A DNA stretch of 64,000 nucleotides, taken from the sequence record OL956808.1; one strand, written 5' to 3'. The notes beneath the pieces were generated by a model. It was not told the origin of the DNA. It saw nothing but the letters and a program-made list of their open reading frames with translations, and made no database searches. Shown here piece after piece: positions 34,864 through 55,308 of the stretch. Source of the DNA: Escherichia phage vB_EcoM-S1P5QW. A program made the position numbers and the translations under genes. Each line of letters opens with the position of its first letter. Within the stretch, counting starts at the first letter, position 1.

Positions 34864-36591
34864 TTAGCCAATGTCAATCCTCGATCCATCAATTGTGTAT
34901 TGACCAGATGAAATAGAACTCATAGATGCCATTTTTTCTGTCCAATCACCACCAACGTCCCAATCAACTGTCCCAGCAACTTTCCAAGAAAGATTTCCAT
35001 TTACTGTATTAGTCTGATTTCCTTCAACTAAAGTGGTAGCATCTCCTTTAACTGTAATGTCAGCATTACCTTCAACTACAATAGTAACATTACCTTTAAC
35101 TAGGATAGTTCCATTACCTTCAACCGTCTTAGTTTCATCGCCACGTACAAATATTGTATTGCTTCCATCTATTTGGTGGAGACGATTATCCATGTTGTAA
35201 TAAATTTCTGACCCACCGACGTTAGTCTTTTTATCGCCAGCTACCAAAAAATTACCATCAGCATTTGTTATATCATACAAATTATCAACAGTTTTTCTTG
35301 TTTTTCTTCCTGACGGTGATACTTCCTCATATGTTCCAGTCGGATGAACTAATCTGTATCGTTCTTGTCCCGGGGTATCGTCAAATTCCTGAATATGACC
35401 GCTTTCAGTTTCCATTGTGTGAACATACGGGTATTCACCTTTATATGAAGAAACAGGTTCTTTAAATAAAATTCTCGAATCATTCGGAATAGGAGGGTCA
35501 GCTGGATCAGAAGACTTTGCTACAGCAGCAGCCATTGCTGACAAAGACCTAGCCGGTGTTTTCACTTCAATACCGTATGATTCCAAATTACCGGTAAGAA
35601 TAATCATGGTAACACGGGATGCACGGCCTTTTGTTTGTTGATACCACAATGAATCACGACCGGCTTTATATGCTTTTTCCCAATCTCCAGCTAACATAGC
35701 AGTTAACATTGTGTTAAATTTAGCTACACCGCCAACACCCATCTGAAATGCCATATTTTCTAACGCCATTTGACGAGAACGATTAACTGCTTGCCAAACT
35801 GGGCCAACTTTAGAATGTGATTTAATGTCACGTTGCATATCAGCCAAATCACGTTCAAATAAAGCTACCGCTTCTTCCATTGTAATAGAACCTGGATTTC
35901 CGGTAATTTCACGACCAACTTGTTTTGATAAAACTTTATTAATTTGAGTCATATCACGAACTGGCTGCTTCATGATAAGATGACCAATACCAATTGTCGG
36001 ATATCCTTCAGTATCCCAATAAACCTTTAGTCTTAATCCTTCATCACGGCGAAGCATTTCAGCCATTGACATATTTGGATTATCATCAGTTGGAATTTCT
36101 GATAGCGGTCTATCATCGGGATTTATCGCAGTATCTAGATTGCTATCTTGGATAATATTAGAAGACGAATCATATCCTACTTCTCCGCCTTGGTTTAATA
36201 CGTTAGTATCATTTCCTAGACGTCTAGGATACTGTCCAGTCGGGTCAGAAAATCCTTCAAGTCTATTCGGTTTTTCGCGAACTATTCCACCATACGTACC
36301 AAGGACAATTCCGTTAGTTTTCCATTTGTCTAAAAAATGACCATAAACTCTAGTTCCTTCTACTGGACCAGTAACGGAGCCTCCAATTCCAGACATTGCT
36401 GCAGAAGTTATAGGTTGAATAACTGACATCCATGGTAATTTATCAGTTGGAATACCCATTACGTCGCCTTGCGCTCTTTGAGGTGGATGCAGACCAACTA
36501 CACGAACACGAACACGACCTAATTTTAATGGGTCCATTCTATCTTCAACAACACCAACAAACCAATTAAGGTTATTACTTATCATTTCCAT
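34864..36591 (-). CDS. 5: baseplate hub subunit and tail lysozyme gp5
   Basis: 575 aa; internal lysozyme domain LRLKVYWDTEGYPTIGIGHL paralogous to e lysozyme in this window; C-terminal beta-helix repeats. Confidence 0.95.
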   Translation of the reverse strand: MEMISNNLNWFVGVVEDRMDPLKLGRVRVRVVGLHPPQRAQGDVMGIPTDKLPWMSVIQPITSAAMSGIGGSVTGPVEGTRVYGHFLDKWKTNGIVLGTYGGIVREKPNRLEGFSDPTGQYPRRLGNDTNVLNQGGEVGYDSSSNIIQDSNLDTAINPDDRPLSEIPTDDNPNMSMAEMLRRDEGLRLKVYWDTEGYPTIGIGHLIMKQPVRDMTQINKVLSKQVGREITGNPGSITMEEAVALFERDLADMQRDIKSHSKVGPVWQAVNRSRQMALENMAFQMGVGGVAKFNTMLTAMLAGDWEKAYKAGRDSLWYQQTKGRASRVTMIILTGNLESYGIEVKTPARSLSAMAAAVAKSSDPADPPIPNDSRILFKEPVSSYKGEYPYVHTMETESGHIQEFDDTPGQERYRLVHPTGTYEEVSPSGRKTRKTVDNLYDITNADGNFLVAGDKKTNVGGSEIYYNMDNRLHQIDGSNTIFVRGDETKTVEGNGTILVKGNVTIVVEGNADITVKGDATTLVEGNQTNTVNGNLSWKVAGTVDWDVGGDWTEKMASMSSISSGQYTIDGSRIDIG

Positions 36592-39889: not shown

Positions 39890-40586
<697 letters not shown>

Positions 40587-42198: not shown

Positions 42199-42807
42199 AT
42201 GCATTTTTATCTTTATAAAATAACAAATAAAATTAATAATAAAATTTATATTGGTGTGCATTCTACCGAAAATTTAGATGATGGATATATGGGTTCTGGT
42301 AAATTATTAAAAAGAGCCCAAGATAAATATGGTATAGAAAATTTTTCTAAAGAAATATTAGAGTATTTTGATGATAAAGAATCTATGCTTGAAGCCGAGA
42401 AAAATATTGTCACAGAAGAGTTTTTAAATAGACCAGATGTGTATAATTTAAAACTTGGAGGTGAAGGTGGATGGGATCATATAAATAATTATCCTATGAC
42501 AGATCAGCAACGCGAATTAATTTCATTGGGTGTTAAAAAGGCACATTCTAACGGAAAATTAAAAGGATGGTCTTCAAATGGATTAATGAAAAATGGCTTT
42601 GCTGGTAAAACTCATTCTCAAGAAGCTAAACGTAAAATAGCAAAAGCAAACGAAGCAAAAGTTTCTGCGAATGAAAGAAAAAGAAGAATAGAAATTTCTA
42701 AATTATATGATTTTTCTAAGCGGGGTGAATTATCTAAATATGCTAAGCATATTGGCGTAAGTCATACTCAAGCAAAAAGAATTCTAAATCAAATTAACAA
42801 TATATAA
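42199..42807 (+). CDS. segB: GIY-YIG homing endonuclease, SegB-like
   Basis: GIY-YIG signature FYLYKITNKINNKIYIGVH...YMGSG; track ORF (42157) begins just after tRNA-Gly, ATG at 42199 has an RBS; inside the tRNA cluster as T4 segB. Confidence 0.75.
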   Translation: MHFYLYKITNKINNKIYIGVHSTENLDDGYMGSGKLLKRAQDKYGIENFSKEILEYFDDKESMLEAEKNIVTEEFLNRPDVYNLKLGGEGGWDHINNYPMTDQQRELISLGVKKAHSNGKLKGWSSNGLMKNGFAGKTHSQEAKRKIAKANEAKVSANERKRRIEISKLYDFSKRGELSKYAKHIGVSHTQAKRILNQINNI

Positions 42808-47363: not shown

Positions 47364-47848
47364 TTTTAAAAACTCGCTGGTATGATTTAGATGATGGGGA
47401 TGATGGCATTTCAGTTGATAGAGTTGACTGGAATGGCTGTTCCGAAGATATGAAAAATTTGCTGATTAGGGAGTTTAGAATGGGATATCAACCAGTTAAG
47501 CCATCTACTGCAACAGATGATAAATTCGTGTGTATTCATAATGGTCGCGCTAAATTAACGAACACTGATTGGTTCACAGATAAGATTATGATTCTGTGGT
47601 ATATTATTAGTTTTCCTGTGACATCATTTGTATTTTGCTTCTTTGGAGAAAGTCCAGTAGACAGAACGGGAGATTGGATTATTTTAACCATACTTGTTAA
47701 TATTTTTACAGCAGCAATATTATCTGGGATATGGTACACGTTCATTGAAATGCCATGGCGTTTACGTAGGCAGCAAAAGATTTTTGATGAAAAGAAATAT
47801 ACTCAAAATTTAAATAATTTTATCACCGAATGCAGGAAATTAAAATGA
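47360..47848 (+). CDS. membrane protein, FVxECRK-motif paralog
   Basis: 162 aa; hydrophobic segments; C-terminus NNFITECRKLK; ATGA overlap. Confidence 0.5.
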   Translation: MILKTRWYDLDDGDDGISVDRVDWNGCSEDMKNLLIREFRMGYQPVKPSTATDDKFVCIHNGRAKLTNTDWFTDKIMILWYIISFPVTSFVFCFFGESPVDRTGDWIILTILVNIFTAAILSGIWYTFIEMPWRLRRQQKIFDEKKYTQNLNNFITECRKLK

Positions 47849-48285
47849 AAACATTATCAGCTGGTATTATCTTTATGACAGAAGATAAAGATTTATTCAT
47901 GGGACGGGTTACTGGTTCTCGTAAGCCTGGAATGATGGCACATCGCTGGGATATTCCAAAAGGCCGTGTAGAAAATTCTGATTTGAGCGCACTAGATGCA
48001 GCACGAAGAGAATGCTTAGAAGAGACCGGTTTTAGCAATTATAATCCAGACCTTCTAGAAGACCTAGGTGTATTTAAATATTCTAGTAATAAAGACTTAC
48101 AGCTGTTTTATTATACGATTCCAGTAGAGCATGAGATGTTTAGAAATTGCCATTGCGAGTCTTATTTTGAAAATAAAGATGGTGTTATGATTCCAGAGAT
48201 GGATGCTTTTGCTCTTATTCCTCGTACTCAGTGGCAATATGTGATGGGTCCTTCACTTTACCGAATAATGAACAGCCTCTTTTAA
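47845..48285 (+). CDS. nudE: Nudix hydrolase NudE (e.1)
   Basis: Nudix box GRVENSDLSALDAARRECLEETGF; ATG at 47845 overlaps upstream stop (ATGA) and has aggaaa RBS; track start 47830 is an alternative. Confidence 0.8.
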   Translation: MKTLSAGIIFMTEDKDLFMGRVTGSRKPGMMAHRWDIPKGRVENSDLSALDAARRECLEETGFSNYNPDLLEDLGVFKYSSNKDLQLFYYTIPVEHEMFRNCHCESYFENKDGVMIPEMDAFALIPRTQWQYVMGPSLYRIMNSLF

Positions 48286-48850: not shown

Positions 48851-48910
48851 ATTCACAGTTACTTGAAGAGATAAATTATTAATTAAAATATTTACATTTA
48901 AAGGATACAC

Positions 48911-49384
48911 ATGAAAACATATCAAGAATTTATTACTGAAGCAGCTATTAATTCTCAAATTATTGCTGAATCTTTTACTGATCTTTTGAAATTTAAAAAA
49001 GGACAGAAAATCACTGCTGTACTGGATGATGGTACAGAAGTTGAGATGGATGTACAGGGATATAATTATGCAGTAGATGGAAAACTGTATAATAAATCTC
49101 ATGCTAAATTTGATTCATTTGACGACTTTGTTAATACAGTTGAAGATGAAAAAACTCGTCGATCCATTGCAACAGGTGATGCTAAGGTTCTTATGGCACA
49201 TGGTCATGAACGTATTCGCGCTAAACAGAATAAAATGGGTGAAGATAATTTTGCATTAGTTGGTTATCAATCTGGTAAACAAACTTATGGCTATCAACGT
49301 ACTGCTACCATGTATAACAAAAATGGTAAAATTGCCTTTGTGAATAGTAAAGGTTCTATTCAGTACGTTAAATCGTTCAAATAA
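48911..49384 (+). CDS. internal protein (IPIII-like) with capsid targeting sequence
   Basis: 157 aa; N-terminus MKTYQEFITE-AA matches T4 CTS; adjacent to e as T4 ipIII; aagga RBS. Confidence 0.6.
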   Translation: MKTYQEFITEAAINSQIIAESFTDLLKFKKGQKITAVLDDGTEVEMDVQGYNYAVDGKLYNKSHAKFDSFDDFVNTVEDEKTRRSIATGDAKVLMAHGHERIRAKQNKMGEDNFALVGYQSGKQTYGYQRTATMYNKNGKIAFVNSKGSIQYVKSFK

Positions 49385-49537
49385 GCAAATAAGAAATATG
49401 GGAACAACCTGGACCTCATGATTCTGTGAGGGATTCCCGCCAACCTGTAATAAGGTCGAGCCCAAGTGCGGTAATGGGTAAATACAGAAATGGACAATTC
49501 ATGCGCCACGGAATGGCCCAAACCTAGAGAGAATAAA

Positions 49538-50077
49538 ATGAGAACATTTTTAACTGGTCCTTATCTATCCCTGATGAATGCTTTTACACACCATTCTGAT
49601 GCTAGAGTAGAAGAAATTTGTAAAAACGAATATATCCCGCCATTTGAAGAATTACTTAAACAGTATTGCACACTTCGACTAGATGGTGGACGTCAATCCG
49701 GTAAATCAATTGCTGTGACTAACTTTGCTGCTAATTGGTTGTATGATGGCGGAACAGTTATCGTTCTTTCTAATACTTCAGCTTACGCTAAAATTTCTGC
49801 AAATAACATTAAAAAGGAATTTTCGCGTTATTCTAATGATGATATACGTTTTCGTTTATTTACTGATTCTGTGCGCAGTTTTATTGGTAATAAAGGAAGC
49901 AAGTTCAGAGGTTTATCGCTTTCGCGAATTTTGTATATAATTGATGAGCCTGTCAAATCTCCTGATATGGATAAGATTTATAGTGTCCATATTGAGACTG
50001 TACACTACTGCTGTAATAGTAAATGTTGTATTGGTGGTATTACTCGTCCACAGTTTTTCGTAATCGGAATGCAATGA
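49538..50077 (+). CDS. small P-loop NTPase-like protein with Cys-rich C-terminus
   Basis: Track ORF (49490) over-extended; ATG at 49538 with RBS gives 179 aa; Walker A GGRQSGKS, Walker B-like ILYIIDEP, C-terminal HYCCNSKCC. Confidence 0.55.
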   Translation: MRTFLTGPYLSLMNAFTHHSDARVEEICKNEYIPPFEELLKQYCTLRLDGGRQSGKSIAVTNFAANWLYDGGTVIVLSNTSAYAKISANNIKKEFSRYSNDDIRFRLFTDSVRSFIGNKGSKFRGLSLSRILYIIDEPVKSPDMDKIYSVHIETVHYCCNSKCCIGGITRPQFFVIGMQ

Positions 50078-50403
50078 TGACAGACACTCAGCTTTTCGAA
50101 TATCTTTATTTTTCGCCAAAAACTATTAAAAATAAATTGGTGAATCATTTTGAAATTTTGGCAAATAACAACGTCTTGAGCGAATTTTATCCTAAGCAAT
50201 ACAAATTACAAAAAGGCGTATTCAAAGGATGCAGAGTTTTGTGTACTGCTCCTAATGCACGGCTAATGAATAAAATTCCATATTTTACCATGGAATTTAT
50301 TGATGGTCCTTTTAAAGGACTAATCACCCAAAGTTTAATGGCATATGATTCTGAGCCATTTTTAATTAAAGAACAATCTTGGATAAATTTATTTTCTAAT
50401 TGA
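50074..50403 (+). CDS. hypothetical protein
   Basis: Track ORF starts at non-ATG 50023; ATG at 50074 overlaps upstream stop (ATGA), 109 aa. Confidence 0.45.
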   Translation: MMTDTQLFEYLYFSPKTIKNKLVNHFEILANNNVLSEFYPKQYKLQKGVFKGCRVLCTAPNARLMNKIPYFTMEFIDGPFKGLITQSLMAYDSEPFLIKEQSWINLFSN

Positions 50404-50409
50404 GGTTAT

Positions 50410-50772
50410 ATGAAAGCATATCAAATTCTTGAAGGCACACATAAAGGTACTATTTATTTTGAAGATGGTATTCAAGCACGAATTATTGTCTCTAAAACCT
50501 TTAAAGAGGACTCTTTTGTAGACCCAGAAATTTTCTACGGTTTGCATGCCCGTGAAATTGAAATTGAGCCACAGCCTACAGTTAAAATTGAAGGTGGTCA
50601 ACACCTGAACGTTAACGTTCTGCGTCGTGAAACTCTGGAAGATGCAGTTAAGCATCCGGAAAAATATCCGCAGCTGACCATCCGTGTATCCGGTTATGCA
50701 GTTCGCTTTAACTCTCTGACTCCGGAACAGCAGCGCGACGTTATCGCTCGTACCTTTACTGAGAGTCTGTAA
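50410..50772 (+). CDS. autonomous glycyl radical cofactor, GrcA/YfiD-like
   Basis: 120 aa; C-terminal 60 aa contain glycyl-radical motif RVSGYAVRF and look identical to recalled E. coli GrcA C-terminus; 3' half has host-like GC-rich codons. Confidence 0.85.
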
Positions 50773-50993
50773 TGGCAAAGATAATTATTGAAGGTTCTAA
50801 AGATGTGCTAAATGCTTTCGCAGAATGGTTTAGTAATTCAGGCGAACAGCAATTTAATGAAGCCTGGAATATGGGTGATATTGATGGAATTTATCCTACG
50901 ACAGAAATTTCTGTTCAAGGATATGGCATTCATGAACCTATTCGTTTAGTTGAATATGATTTATGCACTGGTGAGGAAGTCAAATATGATTGA
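50772..50993 (+). CDS. hypothetical protein
   Basis: 73 aa; TAATG overlap with upstream gene. Confidence 0.45.
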   Translation: MAKIIIEGSKDVLNAFAEWFSNSGEQQFNEAWNMGDIDGIYPTTEISVQGYGIHEPIRLVEYDLCTGEEVKYD

Positions 50994-51252
50994 AGATATT
51001 AAAGGTTATAAGCCACATACCGACGAAAAAATCGGTAAAGTAAATGCTATTAAAGACGCTGAAGTTCGTTTAGGACTTATCTTTGATGCTTTATACGATG
51101 AATTTTGGGAAGCATTTGATAGCTGTGAAGATGATGAACTCGCGAAGAATTACGCCGAAAGCCTCGATCAGTTAACTATTGCTAAAACGAAACTCAAAGA
51201 AGCCAGTATGTGGGCTTGTCGTGCAGTGTTCCAACCAGAGGAAAAATATTAA
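50986..51252 (+). CDS. hypothetical protein
   Basis: Track ORF starts at TTG 50950; ATG at 50986 with gaggaag RBS gives 88 aa. Confidence 0.45.
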
Positions 51253-51530
51253 TGGCTCAATTAAGCGCAGGGTTTGGTTATGAGTATTATACTGCCCCTC
51301 GTCGTGTATCTGCCGCTCCTAAGAAAATTCAAAGTCTTGATGACTTCCAGGAAGTAGTCCGTAAAGCTTTCCAGGACTATGCACGTTATCTTAAAGAAGA
51401 TTCACAGGACTGTCTTGAAGAAGATGAAATTGCTTACTATGAGCAACGTCTTGAACAGCTTAAAAACCTACATGAGGTCCGTGCAGAAGTTTCAAAGTCT
51501 ATGAATAAATTGATTAGATTTAAAGAATAA
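51252..51530 (+). CDS. hypothetical protein
   Basis: Track ORF over-extended; ATG at 51252 overlaps upstream stop (TAATG), 92 aa. Confidence 0.45.
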
Positions 51531-51539
51531 CTGTTTACT

Positions 51540-51569
51540 TTTCCTCTTGACTGTGGTATAATTTTTCTA
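51540..51569 (+). promoter_or_regulatory. early promoter upstream of regB
   Basis: GTTTAC, 18-nt spacer, -10 tggTATAAT; imperfect inverted repeat cctcttgactg/cagttaagagg. Confidence 0.6.
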
Positions 51570-51589
51570 TCAGTTAAGAGGAGAATAAC

Positions 51590-52051
51590 ATGACTATCAA
51601 TACAGAAGTTTTTATCCGTCGAAATAAGCTTCGTCGTCACTTTGAGTCGGAGTTTCGTCAAATTAACAATGAGATTCGTGAGGCATCAAAAGCAGCAGGG
51701 GTCTCATCGTTTCATCTAAAATATTCTCAGCATCTTCTTGATCGTGCAATTCAACGGGAGATTGATGAGACATATGTTTTTGAATTATTCCATAAAATAA
51801 AAGACCATGTTTTAGAAGTTAATGAATTCCTGAGTATGCCTCCGCGTCCTGACATTGACGAGGATTTTATTGATGGGGTTGAATATCGTCCTGGACGTTT
51901 AGAAATCACAGATGGAAATCTTTGGCTTGGATTTACGGTTTGTAAGCCTAATGAGAAGTTCAAAAACCCGTCACTTCAATGCAGGATGGCAATTATCAAC
52001 AATCGTCGTTTACCAGGAAAGGCTTCTAAAGCAGTAATTAAAACTCAATGA
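51590..52051 (+). CDS. regB: RegB site-specific endoribonuclease
   Basis: 153 aa; MTINTEVFIRRNKLRRHFESEFRQ... matches recalled T4 RegB; own early promoter and gaggag RBS. Confidence 0.85.
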   Translation: MTINTEVFIRRNKLRRHFESEFRQINNEIREASKAAGVSSFHLKYSQHLLDRAIQREIDETYVFELFHKIKDHVLEVNEFLSMPPRPDIDEDFIDGVEYRPGRLEITDGNLWLGFTVCKPNEKFKNPSLQCRMAIINNRRLPGKASKAVIKTQ

Positions 52052-52058
52052 GGTAAGC

Positions 52059-52604
52059 ATGAGAAAAGCACTACTCGCTGGTCTATTGGCCATTTCAATG
52101 ATGGCACATAGCTCCGAGCATACTTTCAGTAATGTCCAACTCGATAACATGCGTTACGCGTATCAATTCGGGGAACAATTTTCTAAGGATGGAAAATATA
52201 AAACACACAAAAATATCCACAAGAGCGGATTAGGTCATATAATGGCTGCCATTTTATGGCAAGAAAGCTCTGGCGGAGTTAATTTAAAATCTAAACCAAA
52301 GCATCACGCCTACGGAATGTTCCAAAATTATTTGCCTACTATGCGAGCAAGAGTTAAGGAACTTGGTTATAATATGACCGATGCTGAAATAAAAAGAATG
52401 TTGAATAAACGGTCCAATTCAGCTTCCTGGGCGTACATTGAACTTTCTTATTGGTTAAATATACATAAGGGCGATATAAGAAAAGCAATATCCTCTTATA
52501 ATTCGGGATGGAATGTTAAAGCAGGTTCTAAATATGCTTCTGAAGTCCTAGAAAAGGCTAATTACCTTAAAAATAATAAACTTTTGGAAATAGTAAATGA
52601 CTAA
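52059..52604 (+). CDS. secreted lytic transglycosylase-like protein
   Basis: 181 aa; N-terminal signal peptide; SLT-like AILWQESSGG motif. Confidence 0.6.
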   Translation: MRKALLAGLLAISMMAHSSEHTFSNVQLDNMRYAYQFGEQFSKDGKYKTHKNIHKSGLGHIMAAILWQESSGGVNLKSKPKHHAYGMFQNYLPTMRARVKELGYNMTDAEIKRMLNKRSNSASWAYIELSYWLNIHKGDIRKAISSYNSGWNVKAGSKYASEVLEKANYLKNNKLLEIVND

Positions 52605-52938
52605 AATTTTGGTTTTATGTATAGGATTAATTTCATTTTCTGCGTTAGCAGATACATCATATACTGAAATTAGAGAGTATGTAAACCGTACTGCAGCGGA
52701 TTATTGCGGGAAAAATAAAGCATGCCAAGCTGAATTTGCGCAGAAATTAATATATGCATATAAAGACGGAGAAAGAGATAAATCAAGCAGATACAAAAAC
52801 GATACATTGTTAAAACGATATGCTAAAAAGTGGAATACCTTAGAATGTTCAGTTGCGGAGGAAAAAGATAAAGCCGCTTGTCATTCAATGGTTGACCGTT
52901 TGGTAGATTCTTATAATCGAGGATTGAGTACTAGATGA
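52597..52938 (+). CDS. secreted or lipoprotein-like small protein
   Basis: 113 aa; N-terminal signal peptide MTKILVLCIGLISFSALA; several Cys. Confidence 0.5.
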   Translation: MTKILVLCIGLISFSALADTSYTEIREYVNRTAADYCGKNKACQAEFAQKLIYAYKDGERDKSSRYKNDTLLKRYAKKWNTLECSVAEEKDKAACHSMVDRLVDSYNRGLSTR

Positions 52939-53414
52939 TTGTAAAATATATCAAGGGCGATATTGTCGCCCTCTTTCTTGAAGGTAATATTATTGCGCAT
53001 GGGTGTAACTGTTTTCATACAATGGGCAGTGGTGTAGCTGGTCAATTAGCAAGAGCCTATCCCAAAATTTTAGAAATAGATAAAACCACTACTGAGTACG
53101 GTTCTCGTGATAAATTAGGCGATATGTCTATTGTTTTTAAACATAAACCTAATGGTTTTGGCATATGTTATAACTTGTATACGCAATACGAACCAGGTCC
53201 TAATCTTGATTATGGTGCTTTAGTAAACTGCATGATAGAATTAAATCTACAGGCAGAAACCCTTTTGTTTAAACCAGTAATTTACATTCCACGCATAGGT
53301 TGTGGTATTGCTGGCGGCGATTGGGATAAGGTTTCTAAATTAATCGACATGTTTACTCCTGATATTGATTTAATAGTGGTGGATTATGAAAGTACATTAC
53401 CCACATCCGTTTGA
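52935..53414 (+). CDS. macrodomain-like protein (ADP-ribose binding/processing fold)
   Basis: 159 aa; Gly-rich motifs HGCNCFHTMGSGVAGQLA and RIGCGIAGGDW resembling macrodomain nucleotide-binding loops. Confidence 0.5.
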   Translation: MIVKYIKGDIVALFLEGNIIAHGCNCFHTMGSGVAGQLARAYPKILEIDKTTTEYGSRDKLGDMSIVFKHKPNGFGICYNLYTQYEPGPNLDYGALVNCMIELNLQAETLLFKPVIYIPRIGCGIAGGDWDKVSKLIDMFTPDIDLIVVDYESTLPTSV

Positions 53415-53598
53415 TCCTAAAAACAAAGTGGAAATTATTCGTCAATGGGAACGCATTTGCCGTACTAAATGTCCAATTAATAGTCCACATGATGTAGATA
53501 AAGACTACATTGGAACATTCGTTGAATATACCTTTATTGATAAGAAAGGTCGTAAACAACATGTAGAAGAATATTGCTTAAAGGTTACATGGTTATGA
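53386..53598 (+). CDS. hypothetical protein
   Basis: 70 aa; overlaps upstream gene 3' end. Confidence 0.4.
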   Translation: MKVHYPHPFDPKNKVEIIRQWERICRTKCPINSPHDVDKDYIGTFVEYTFIDKKGRKQHVEEYCLKVTWL

Positions 53599-53801
53599 GC
53601 CAAACTAGTATTCTTAAAAATGCCCACTGTGAAAAGTGTAAGTGGCCTGTTGTTTTTGCTTTATGTAATGATGAAATGGCTTGTGATTTCGATTATTGGT
53701 GCTATTGTTCTAATAAAGGATGCATCAATCATAAAGGTGAAGGATTTTATTCGGGATTTTATCCTTATCCTGATTTCGTTAAAGAAGGTAAACCAAAATG
53801 A
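53595..53801 (+). CDS. Cys-rich small protein (putative zinc-binding)
   Basis: Track ORF starts at TTG 53574; ATG at 53595 overlaps upstream stop; 68 aa with CxxC and further Cys pairs. Confidence 0.45.
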   Translation: MSQTSILKNAHCEKCKWPVVFALCNDEMACDFDYWCYCSNKGCINHKGEGFYSGFYPYPDFVKEGKPK

Positions 53802-53974
53802 ATGATGATTTAAAATATCAATTATTACGTGAACTTGATGTTTTGATTGAACTTTCTGCGCAAAAAGGATTTATAATTGGATCAGGTCAAAAAGACCCCA
53901 ACGGTCATTCAATCGTAGCGGTTATGAATCAGAAACGAGTCATTTTAAAACTTTTGGGGATTGACATACTGTGA
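53798..53974 (+). CDS. hypothetical small protein
   Basis: 58 aa ORF not in track; ATG overlaps upstream stop (ATGA). Confidence 0.35.
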   Translation: MNDDLKYQLLRELDVLIELSAQKGFIIGSGQKDPNGHSIVAVMNQKRVILKLLGIDIL

Positions 53975-54156
53975 GTCTAAGCAAAGAACAAAAAGATAAA
54001 TTGTTTGAGCTTATCCATGAACTTCTAGATGAGCATATAGAAGCAAACACCTTTTATGATGAATACGGCCCGCTATCTCCAGAACAGCAGGAAGAATTTG
54101 CTGATCGGTTTGATAAGAAAGAAAATGAATTAATAGCTTATGTGAATACGCTTTAA
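53971..54156 (+). CDS. hypothetical small acidic protein
   Basis: 61 aa; GTG start overlapping upstream stop (GTGA); low certainty. Confidence 0.35.
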   Translation: MSLSKEQKDKLFELIHELLDEHIEANTFYDEYGPLSPEQQEEFADRFDKKENELIAYVNTL

Positions 54157-54165
54157 GAAGGTGAT

Positions 54166-54747
54166 ATGGCGAGTTTAATTTTTACTTATGCAGCAATGAA
54201 TGCTGGAAAATCTGCTTCTCTTTTGACTGCTGCACATAATTATAAAGAACGTGGAATGAGTGTATTAGTTCTTAAGCCTGCTATTGATACTCGCGATTCT
54301 GTCTGTGAAGTTGTTTCTCGCATTGGAATTAAACAGGAAGCGAATATTATTACAGATGATATGGATATTTTCGAGTTCTATAAATGGGCTGAAGCACAAA
54401 AAGATATTCATTGCGTATTTGTAGATGAAGCTCAGTTTTTAAAAACTGAACAGGTGCATCAATTAAGTCGAATTGTTGATACATATAATGTTCCTGTTAT
54501 GGCTTATGGATTAAGGACTGATTTCGCTGGAAAATTGTTTGAAGGTTCTAAAGAACTTTTAGCGATTGCAGATAAACTTATTGAACTAAAGGCAGTTTGT
54601 CATTGTGGTAAAAAAGCGATTATGACAGCTCGATTAATGGAAGATGGAACACCAGTTAAAGAAGGTAATCAAATCTGTATTGGTGATGAAATTTATGTTT
54701 CTTTGTGCAGAAAACATTGGAATGAATTAACTAAAAAGCTCGGTTAG
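54166..54747 (+). CDS. tk: thymidine kinase
   Basis: 193 aa; P-loop AMNAGKS; C-terminal CxxC zinc ribbon; matches recalled T4 Tk. Confidence 0.92.
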   Translation: MASLIFTYAAMNAGKSASLLTAAHNYKERGMSVLVLKPAIDTRDSVCEVVSRIGIKQEANIITDDMDIFEFYKWAEAQKDIHCVFVDEAQFLKTEQVHQLSRIVDTYNVPVMAYGLRTDFAGKLFEGSKELLAIADKLIELKAVCHCGKKAIMTARLMEDGTPVKEGNQICIGDEIYVSLCRKHWNELTKKLG

Positions 54748-54789
54748 TGCAAAAGTTATAAATAGGTTTATCTAACTAAAGGGGTATAT

Positions 54790-55002
54790 ATGCTACAATT
54801 AACTGAAAAGCAACTTCGCAATCTTACTGTTCTTCAATTAGATGAAATTCGTAGGGAAGTTGGAAATATCATTTCAGCTTTGCGTCGAGAAGTATCACTC
54901 AACCAATCTCCGGCAGACTATACTAGATTGCGAAATTTTGAAAAATACCTTGATAAAGTTAAGGCCGTGCATCGGCATAAAGTAAATACAGGACAAAAAT
55001 GA
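54790..55002 (+). CDS. hypothetical protein
   Basis: 70 aa; RBS present; between tk and rI. Confidence 0.5.
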
Positions 55003-55014
55003 TAGGAGGCCTTT

Positions 55015-55308
55015 ATGGCCTTAAAAGCAACGGCACTTTTTGCCATGCTAGGATTGTCATTTGTTTTATCTCCATCGATTGAAGCGAATGTCGATCCTCA
55101 TTTTGATAAATTTATGGAATCTGGTATTAGGCACGTTTATACACTTTTTGAAAATAAAAGCGTAGAATCGTCTGAACAATTCTATAGTTTTATGAGAACG
55201 ACCTATAAAAATGACCCGTGCTCTTCTGATTTTGAATGTATAGAACGAGGCGCGGAGATGGCACAATCATACGCTAGAATTATGAACATTAAATTGGAGA
55301 CTGAATGA
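55015..55308 (+). CDS. rI: lysis inhibition regulator RI (antiholin)
   Basis: 97 aa; N-terminal signal-anchor MALKATALFAMLGLSFVLSPSIEA; matches recalled T4 RI. Confidence 0.85.
   Translation: MALKATALFAMLGLSFVLSPSIEANVDPHFDKFMESGIRHVYTLFENKSVESSEQFYSFMRTTYKNDPCSSDFECIERGAEMAQSYARIMNIKLETE

Follow-up and report, generated by a model that had tools for sequence, protein, structure and literature searches.

What does a small protein with two glycine-rich loops do among the early genes of a T4-like phage, and does it act against a host defence? This question is raised by an open reading frame at 52935-53414 of the window, the 64,000-nucleotide stretch of Escherichia phage vB_EcoM-S1P5QW (OL956808.1) analysed here. 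An initial annotation, made from the letters alone, had compared the two loops with the ADP-ribose-binding loops of macrodomains and suggested that the product might counter ADP-ribosylating toxins, such as DarT, or NAD-derived signalling. The reading frame is present exactly as given there, with an ATG start, 159 amino acids and both of the quoted loops, and its placement among early genes holds, with regB, vs.1, vs, tk.3 and tk as neighbours, all on the same strand. The window belongs to a Tequatrovirus, and the 3 kb around the macrodomain gene are 99.9% identical to Shigella phage Sf22 and find matches in 756 phage records, mainly T4-like phages of Escherichia and Shigella. With these neighbours named from the RefSeq annotation of Sf22 and T4, the gene therefore fills the T4 tk.4 slot, in the order vs, macrodomain gene, tk.3, upstream of tk. 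The features of the locus are as follows:

51534..51562, + strand: promoter-like site of sigma-70 type ahead of regB, TTTACT-17-TATAAT with TG
51590-52051, + strand: regB
52059-52604, + strand: vs.1
52597-52938, + strand: vs (valyl-tRNA synthetase modifier)
52935..52938, + strand: ATGA overlap of the vs stop and the macrodomain start, sequence ACTAGATGATTG; the vs reading frame ends at 52938
52935..53414, + strand: macrodomain gene, allele of T4 tk.4 (adfM); ATG start, 159 amino acids plus stop codon
52954..52972, + strand: stem-loop AGGGCGATATTGTCGCCCT in codons 7-13 of the macrodomain gene; 7-8 bp, GC-rich
52998..53051, + strand: residues 22-39 HGCNCFHTMGSGVAGQLA, comprising loop 1 and helix alpha1; the loop is the substrate-binding/catalytic one and includes His22, Asn25 and Gly31-x-Gly33
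53007-53009, + strand: Asn25 codon, within loop 1
53184..53186, + strand: Gln84 codon CAA, at the position of TARG1 K84, DarG K80 and SCO6735 Gln85
53292..53324, + strand: loop 2, residues 120-130 RIGCGIAGGDW; phosphate-binding loop with Gly122-x-Gly124
53386..53414, + strand: 29-nt overlap of the macrodomain 3' end and the tk.3 start, from the reading-frame coordinates
53386-53598, + strand: tk.3
54166-54747, + strand: tk

The ATGA arrangement of vs and the macrodomain gene is also present in T4, and the overlap makes translational coupling of the two genes probable. According to a preprint describing a HIDEN-SEQ study of T4, which also covers tk.4, vs was the most strongly depleted gene in minimal medium (bioRxiv 10.1101/2025.11.20.689424). 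Further upstream, vs.1, vs and the macrodomain gene follow one another with zero intergenic gap, and the site at 51534-51562, the best promoter-like match within 50000-55200, is a possible start for a regB-vs.1-vs-macrodomain transcript. At the other end, a 13-nt gap relative to T4 lies just ahead of the tk.3 ATG, and the macrodomain gene therefore overlaps tk.3; residues 156-159 of its C-terminal tail are encoded by tk.3 sequence in another frame and are disordered in the AlphaFold2 model (pLDDT <50). The stem-loop at 52954-52972, flagged as terminator-like on both strands, is conserved in T4 and sits within a short 5' segment that is nearly identical to T4, near the onset of divergence between the two genes. 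That this hairpin works as a terminator or RNA element is unsupported (fold z-score -1.6 for the surrounding 81 nt, with an equal or better fold in 14 of 200 shuffles), and the minus-strand reading frames at 52911-53045 and 53353-53562, opposite the conserved coding frame, were treated as chance ORFs.

The gene product is a genuine macrodomain of the TARG1/ALC1-like clade. It matches Pfam Macro PF01661 at 33.1 bits (gathering cut-off 22; E 6.2e-8) over profile positions 2-117 of 118, as well as PHROG 335 (E 1.6e-71). A phmmer search against the PDB returned BT1257 (E 1.9e-10), Poa1p (1.8e-9), SCO6735 (8.6e-8), Mtb DarG (1.4e-5) and also TARG1, while hhalign gave probabilities of 98.4% against TARG1 and 98.9% against BT1257. 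The structure prediction that the initial annotation had put forward as a check likewise came out as a macrodomain: the AlphaFold2 model, built from an 85-sequence alignment, has a mean pLDDT of 93.8 and a pTM of 0.89, its predicted fold is the three-layer alpha/beta/alpha arrangement of a macrodomain with a central mixed beta-sheet, and each of the top 50 PDB structures that Foldseek matched to it is a macrodomain or a design derived from one, with TARG1, BT1257, Poa1p and DarG in the lead. As judged by these scores, the likeness lies far above chance level. The Sf22 record labels the gene 'phosphatase; macro domain-containing protein, pfam01661', and an A1pp/macro match of tk.4 orthologues has been on record since 2006 (PMC1524935). 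Both the fold and the function of this family were reported earlier, and the present allele would represent a new, divergent member of it.

The two glycine-rich loops singled out by the initial annotation correspond to the substrate-binding and phosphate-binding loops of macrodomains. Specifically, homologues conserve an Asn plus GxG (N25, G31-S-G33) and G122-C-G124-I-A-G-G128, the putative ADP-ribose-binding loops, and H22, G23, N25, C26, G33 and A35 are invariant among 85 aligned sequences. In a wider survey (258 homologues retrieved, 256 of them full-length), Gln84 occurs in all 256 full-length proteins, Asn25 in 255 of 258 and His22 in 249; at position 126, 196 sequences carry Ala and 59 carry Gly. 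Asn25 has its counterparts in SCO6735 Asn27, DarG Asn22 and PhiKZ AdfM Asn23, the mutation of which lowers activity, while Gly124 equals SCO6735 Gly128 and loop 2 aligns with the PRIGCGLAGG[KT]W of BT1257/SCO6735. In hhalign profile alignments, Gln84 stands opposite TARG1 Lys84, BT1257 Gln82 and Lys80 of the Thermus and Mycobacterium DarG proteins, and Ala126 stands opposite TARG1 Asp125. The DarG sequences in these alignments were fragments obtained with PhiKZ gp104 as query; in them, NLYTQ of the phage protein pairs with NFPTK, such that Gln84 faces Lys80. The alignment to PhiKZ gp104 itself is offset by two residues near the catalytic strand and is of low confidence, whereas those to TARG1, BT1257, Taq DarG and Mtb DarG agree. 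A DarG-type mechanism was rejected, with these four alignments setting Gln84 at the Lys position.

A Gln/Ala pair at these positions is known from SCO6735 (Gln85/Ala130) and BT1257 (Gln82/Ala128), which a crystal-structure comparison by Lalic et al. placed in a subclass of their own whose mechanism is distinct (PMC5087735). Since Gln84 and Ala126 replace the Lys of TARG1 and DarG and the Asp125 of TARG1, the protein is predicted by its residues to belong to this SCO6735/BT1257 (Gln/Ala) subclass of TARG1/ALC1-like macrodomains, and not to the DarG type; BT1257 and SCO6735 are also its closest solved relatives. The family at large, as sampled by an exhaustive search that yielded 1,611 cluster representatives at E <=1e-10, consists mainly of stand-alone proteins of about 150-170 amino acids. 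Next to the chromosomal homologue of Pelagimonas, no Pfam-recognisable DarT was found.

What such a protein would do during infection can be approached from T4. There, phages lacking adfA and adfN (gene 30.3) are still resistant to DarTG2, and AdfA and AdfB work by binding the toxin (PMC11825919). In the preprint, a T4 transposon screen pointed to just one gene, tk.4, that was required when DarTG2 was present, and the clean knockout was sensitive, from which the name adfM (anti-DarT factor Macrodomain) derives; the evidence published there for T4 AdfM is genetic alone, enzymatic removal of ADP-ribose being proposed as something that 'seems likely' (bioRxiv 10.1101/2025.11.20.689424). Among the systems that the section on this screen lists (RexAB, RnlAB, CBASS, DarTG1 and DarTG2), tk.4 is reported as a hit under DarTG2 only (bioRxiv 10.1101/2025.11.20.689424), and the suggestion that the protein interferes with NAD-derived signalling finds no support. 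From the side of biochemistry, SCO6735 strips thymidine-linked ADP-ribose from DarT-modified single-stranded DNA with high turnover and shields Streptomyces from DarT; Q85A and Q85E abolish all activity, N27S almost all of it, and in the lysine-independent mechanism proposed, the reaction is started by water while Gln85 keeps the distal ribose in position (PMC9411070).

We therefore favour, with a probability of about 0.72, the reading that the window protein is a stand-alone macrodomain ADP-ribosylglycohydrolase of the SCO6735/BT1257 subclass that removes DarT2-attached ADP-ribose from phage DNA and thereby counters DarTG2. The fold, the subclass residues and the tk.4 synteny were computed here, the T4 tk.4 phenotype and SCO6735 hydrolysis come from the literature, and that an allele of 58% identity plays the same role is the step we infer. 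Several features weigh against this reading: the sequence departs from T4 Tk.4 at 42% of positions, some of them in the phosphate loop; the lysine essential for catalysis in DarG is missing; Ser32 stands in for the DNA-contacting Lys34 of SCO6735; and the N-terminal half resembles the yeast Appr-1''-p phosphatase Poa1p as well. The DarT-countering idea of the initial annotation thus gains support from the T4 slot and phenotype and from the SCO6735-type signature, with the function of this particular allele presumed by analogy. In the model we propose, regB, vs.1, vs and the macrodomain gene would be expressed jointly, ahead of replication. Host DarT2 would ADP-ribosylate thymidines in single-stranded phage DNA and so block replication; the enzyme would use its two Gly-rich loops to bind the ADP-ribose and would hydrolyse the N-glycosidic ribose-thymine bond, yielding intact DNA and free ADP-ribose. 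Catalysis would be lysine-independent, as proposed for SCO6735: Asn25 would hold Gln84, which in turn would position the distal ribose, and the reaction would start from a water bound to the backbone. More speculatively, NudE could then degrade the released ADP-ribose.

The window gene and T4 tk.4 (NP_049723) are full-length homologues (58% protein identity over 155 amino acids, E 4e-70) that share the slot between vs and tk.3, His22, Asn25, Gln84, the ATGA link to vs and a similar length (155 amino acids in T4 and 159 here). They differ in 42% of residues and in the phosphate loop, which reads CGIAGGD in the window allele and AGIGKGN in T4, and the published phenotype belongs to the T4 allele only. 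At the DNA level, the flanks are near-identical to T4, but the gene body is not. By Nei-Gojobori estimates relative to T4, dS is 0.009 in vs.1, 0.086 in regB, 0.087 in tk, 0.124 in vs and 0.44 in tk.3, whereas in tk.4 it is about 1.6, which is saturated, with a dN of 0.39. The divergence climbs from about codon 11-20 and stops at the stop codon; residues 46-75 and 121-159 are the most variable stretches (pN 0.4-0.65), and the active-site segments are conserved. No claim of positive selection on the allele is possible, given the saturated dS, an overall pN/pS of about 0.46 and a dN/dS of about 0.24. A dS of about 1.6, set against 0.009-0.12 in the flanks, therefore points to an anciently diverged allele in a T4-like backbone.

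Both alleles are common. At least 318 GenBank phage records carry a protein with >=90% identity to the window allele, whose next relatives (74%) are found in Dhakavirus, in the same slot; the T4 allele is present in 224 records at >=90% identity, with 159 more at 80-90% identity to it, and has its next relatives (84.5%) in Mosigvirus, again in the same slot. The simplest reading of these patterns is that diverged alleles have been swapped by recombination inside a conserved slot. One may go further and picture the tk.4 slot as a hot spot at which genera trade Gln-type macrodomain alleles of ancient divergence, alleles that may be non-equivalent, each adapted to different DarT2-like ADP-ribosyltransferases by way of toxin binding or of its preference for a nucleic-acid substrate, with the lysine-independent T-even AdfM derived from SCO6735/BT1257-type housekeeping hydrolases separately from the DarG-derived AdfM of PhiKZ. 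We offer this extension tentatively, and consider it more doubtful than not.

Four other explanations were weighed, each of which has less support than the removal of ADP-ribose from phage DNA. First, the protein could act on a soluble metabolite, as an Appr-1''-p phosphatase, an OAADPr deacetylase or an enzyme breaking down NAD-derived signals (Thoeris or sirtuin products), and have no part in DNA repair. The database label 'phosphatase' would imply this, but the label is a transfer of a domain name only (SMART A1pp), and the Gln/Ala signature fits SCO6735, which is active on DNA. Further, no source of Appr-1''-p is known in T4 infection, where Pnkp/Rnl repair is not known to use Tpt1/KptA. 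The T4 gene showed a specific phenotype under DarTG2, a DNA modifier, and we regard a metabolite substrate as unlikely.

Second, DarT2 might be neutralised chiefly by stoichiometric binding of the toxin, with hydrolysis secondary, in which case the divergence of the alleles would reflect matching to DarT2 variants. The catalytically dead SCO6735 Q85A does inhibit DarT in vitro, more so than DarG K80A or TARG1 K84A (PMC9411070), AdfA and AdfB set a precedent for toxin binding (PMC11825919), and the two phage alleles diverge strongly everywhere but in the active-site loops. However, about 250 homologues, chromosomal bacterial ones without a DarT neighbour included, show strict conservation of all catalytic-site residues, which argues for selection on enzymatic activity, and the phage protein has no counterpart of the C-terminal DarT-binding domain of DarG. 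A predominantly binding mode is thus quite improbable.

Equally hard to credit is a shifted substrate, whereby the window allele would act on uracil-linked ADP-ribose in RNA, or on the marks of another host ADP-ribosyltransferase, instead of on DarT2-modified DNA. SCO6735, TARG1 and DarG do also hydrolyse uracil-linked ADP-ribose on single-stranded RNA (PMC13036486), and the ancient split from the T4 allele (dS about 1.6) and the altered phosphate loop would be in keeping with a change of target. Nevertheless, a bacterial defence that ADP-ribosylates uracil in RNA is undocumented in the literature surveyed, the two alleles have identical active-site residues, and both allele lineages keep one slot across Tevenvirinae genera, which suggests a single conserved role. 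Finally, that the protein erases the ADP-ribose that Alt, ModA and ModB of the phage itself place on host proteins, and so completes a writer/eraser pair with the three ADP-ribosyltransferases of T4-type phages (PMC8120803), is extremely unlikely, given that Alt and Mod modify arginine (PMC8120803), that Arg-ADPr is cleared by DraG/ARH-type enzymes and not by TARG1-like macrodomains (PMC8120803, table), that SCO6735 acts on Glu-linked ADPr and did not undo the modification made by the ART tested (PMC5087735), and that tk.4 is dispensable without DarTG2 (bioRxiv 10.1101/2025.11.20.689424).

Elsewhere in the window, several further departures from T4 were recorded. Just downstream of the macrodomain gene lies a second variable cassette (53574-54156), in which three small ORFs stand where T4 has tk.2 and tk.1:

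53574-53801: small ORF, Cys-rich, 75 amino acids
53798-53974: small ORF
53971-54156: small ORF, the sole one of the three to resemble T4 Tk.2 (52%)

The window holds no match to T4 Tk.1 or to mobD, and tblastn found none to T4 denV (endonuclease V) anywhere in it. Upstream, at about 48900-50080, the vs.8 homologue is broken near 49530 into two frames, 49426-49530 encoding residues 1-35 and 49535-50074 encoding residues 40-219 (the Sf22 note reads 'lacks the N-terminus'), IpII is only 33% identical to that of T4, and segB, a homing endonuclease, is represented at 42199-42549 by only the first 117 of 221 residues, at 83% identity. Two genes that are close to T4 are nudE, a Nudix hydrolase active on ADP-ribose (47830-48282, 98% identical), and 57B/acb1, an anti-CBASS nuclease (40128-40583, 99% identical). 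A second lysozyme-like match, to T4 gene e, at 35575-36072 on the - strand (43% identity over 161 residues) is presumably the lysozyme domain of the baseplate protein gp5, going by the T4 map, from which we also expect adfN to lie outside the covered stretch.

The window gene opens no new kind of biology, and its family is ordinary in kind. Its value is rather that a large group of T4-like phages holds a second, strongly diverged version of a recently described anti-DarTG2 factor, and that the T-even factor is of the lysine-less SCO6735 subclass, in contrast with DarG and the AdfM of PhiKZ; a second point of value is the cassette-like allelic replacement at the tk.4 locus. These observations may be of use in forecasting which therapeutic or model phages escape DarTG2, in choosing Gln84 and Asn25, and not a lysine, for catalytic mutants, and in keeping apart two AdfM proteins of different subfamilies.

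Set beside the systems already characterised, the protein differs from each in a definable way. Human TARG1/OARD1 relies on a Lys84/Asp125 catalytic dyad where the phage protein has Gln/Ala, and yeast Poa1p, an Appr-1''-p phosphatase, aligns well with it in sequence over the N-terminal half only. DarG (DarG2; 5M31/5M3E/5M3I) has a catalytic Lys80 in a PTK motif, where the phage protein has Gln, and a C-terminal DarT-binding domain. The phage protein scores 27.8 bits against the DarG equivalog NF048014 (cut-off 250), matching model positions 2-142 of 338 only, and of the 329 positions of the PADLOC DarG model it covers 3-144 only; further, no darT lies next to the gene, its neighbours being vs and tk.3. 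SCO6735 of Streptomyces coelicolor (5E3B) and Bacteroides BT1257 (2FG1/2AFC) are cellular and DNA-damage-inducible proteins, about 27-29% identical to the phage protein. The DNA-binding Lys34 and Lys89 of SCO6735 are not conserved in it, Ser32 taking the place of Lys34 and a different mobile loop following Gln84, and DNA binding may therefore differ from that of SCO6735.

The nearest functional parallel carries the same name. PhiKZ gp104, the 'AdfM' of a chimallivirus, is a stand-alone phage macrodomain that counters DarTG2 and that biochemical work showed to remove T-ADPr from an oligonucleotide (PMC13309987). It has Asn23 and Lys78, whereas the window protein has Gln at the Lys position. Its best solved relatives are the DarG macrodomains (E 9e-25, compared with 1.4e-5 for the window protein), its phmmer search gave no significant match to BT1257, SCO6735 or TARG1, and its relation to the T-even family is at profile level only (95.9% probability, 22% identity). 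Two 2025-2026 papers thus use the name AdfM, one for the Gln-type, SCO6735-like Tk.4 of T4 and the other for the Lys-type, DarG-like gp104 of PhiKZ. Going by their sequences, these proteins belong to different subfamilies under one name and look like independent recruitments.
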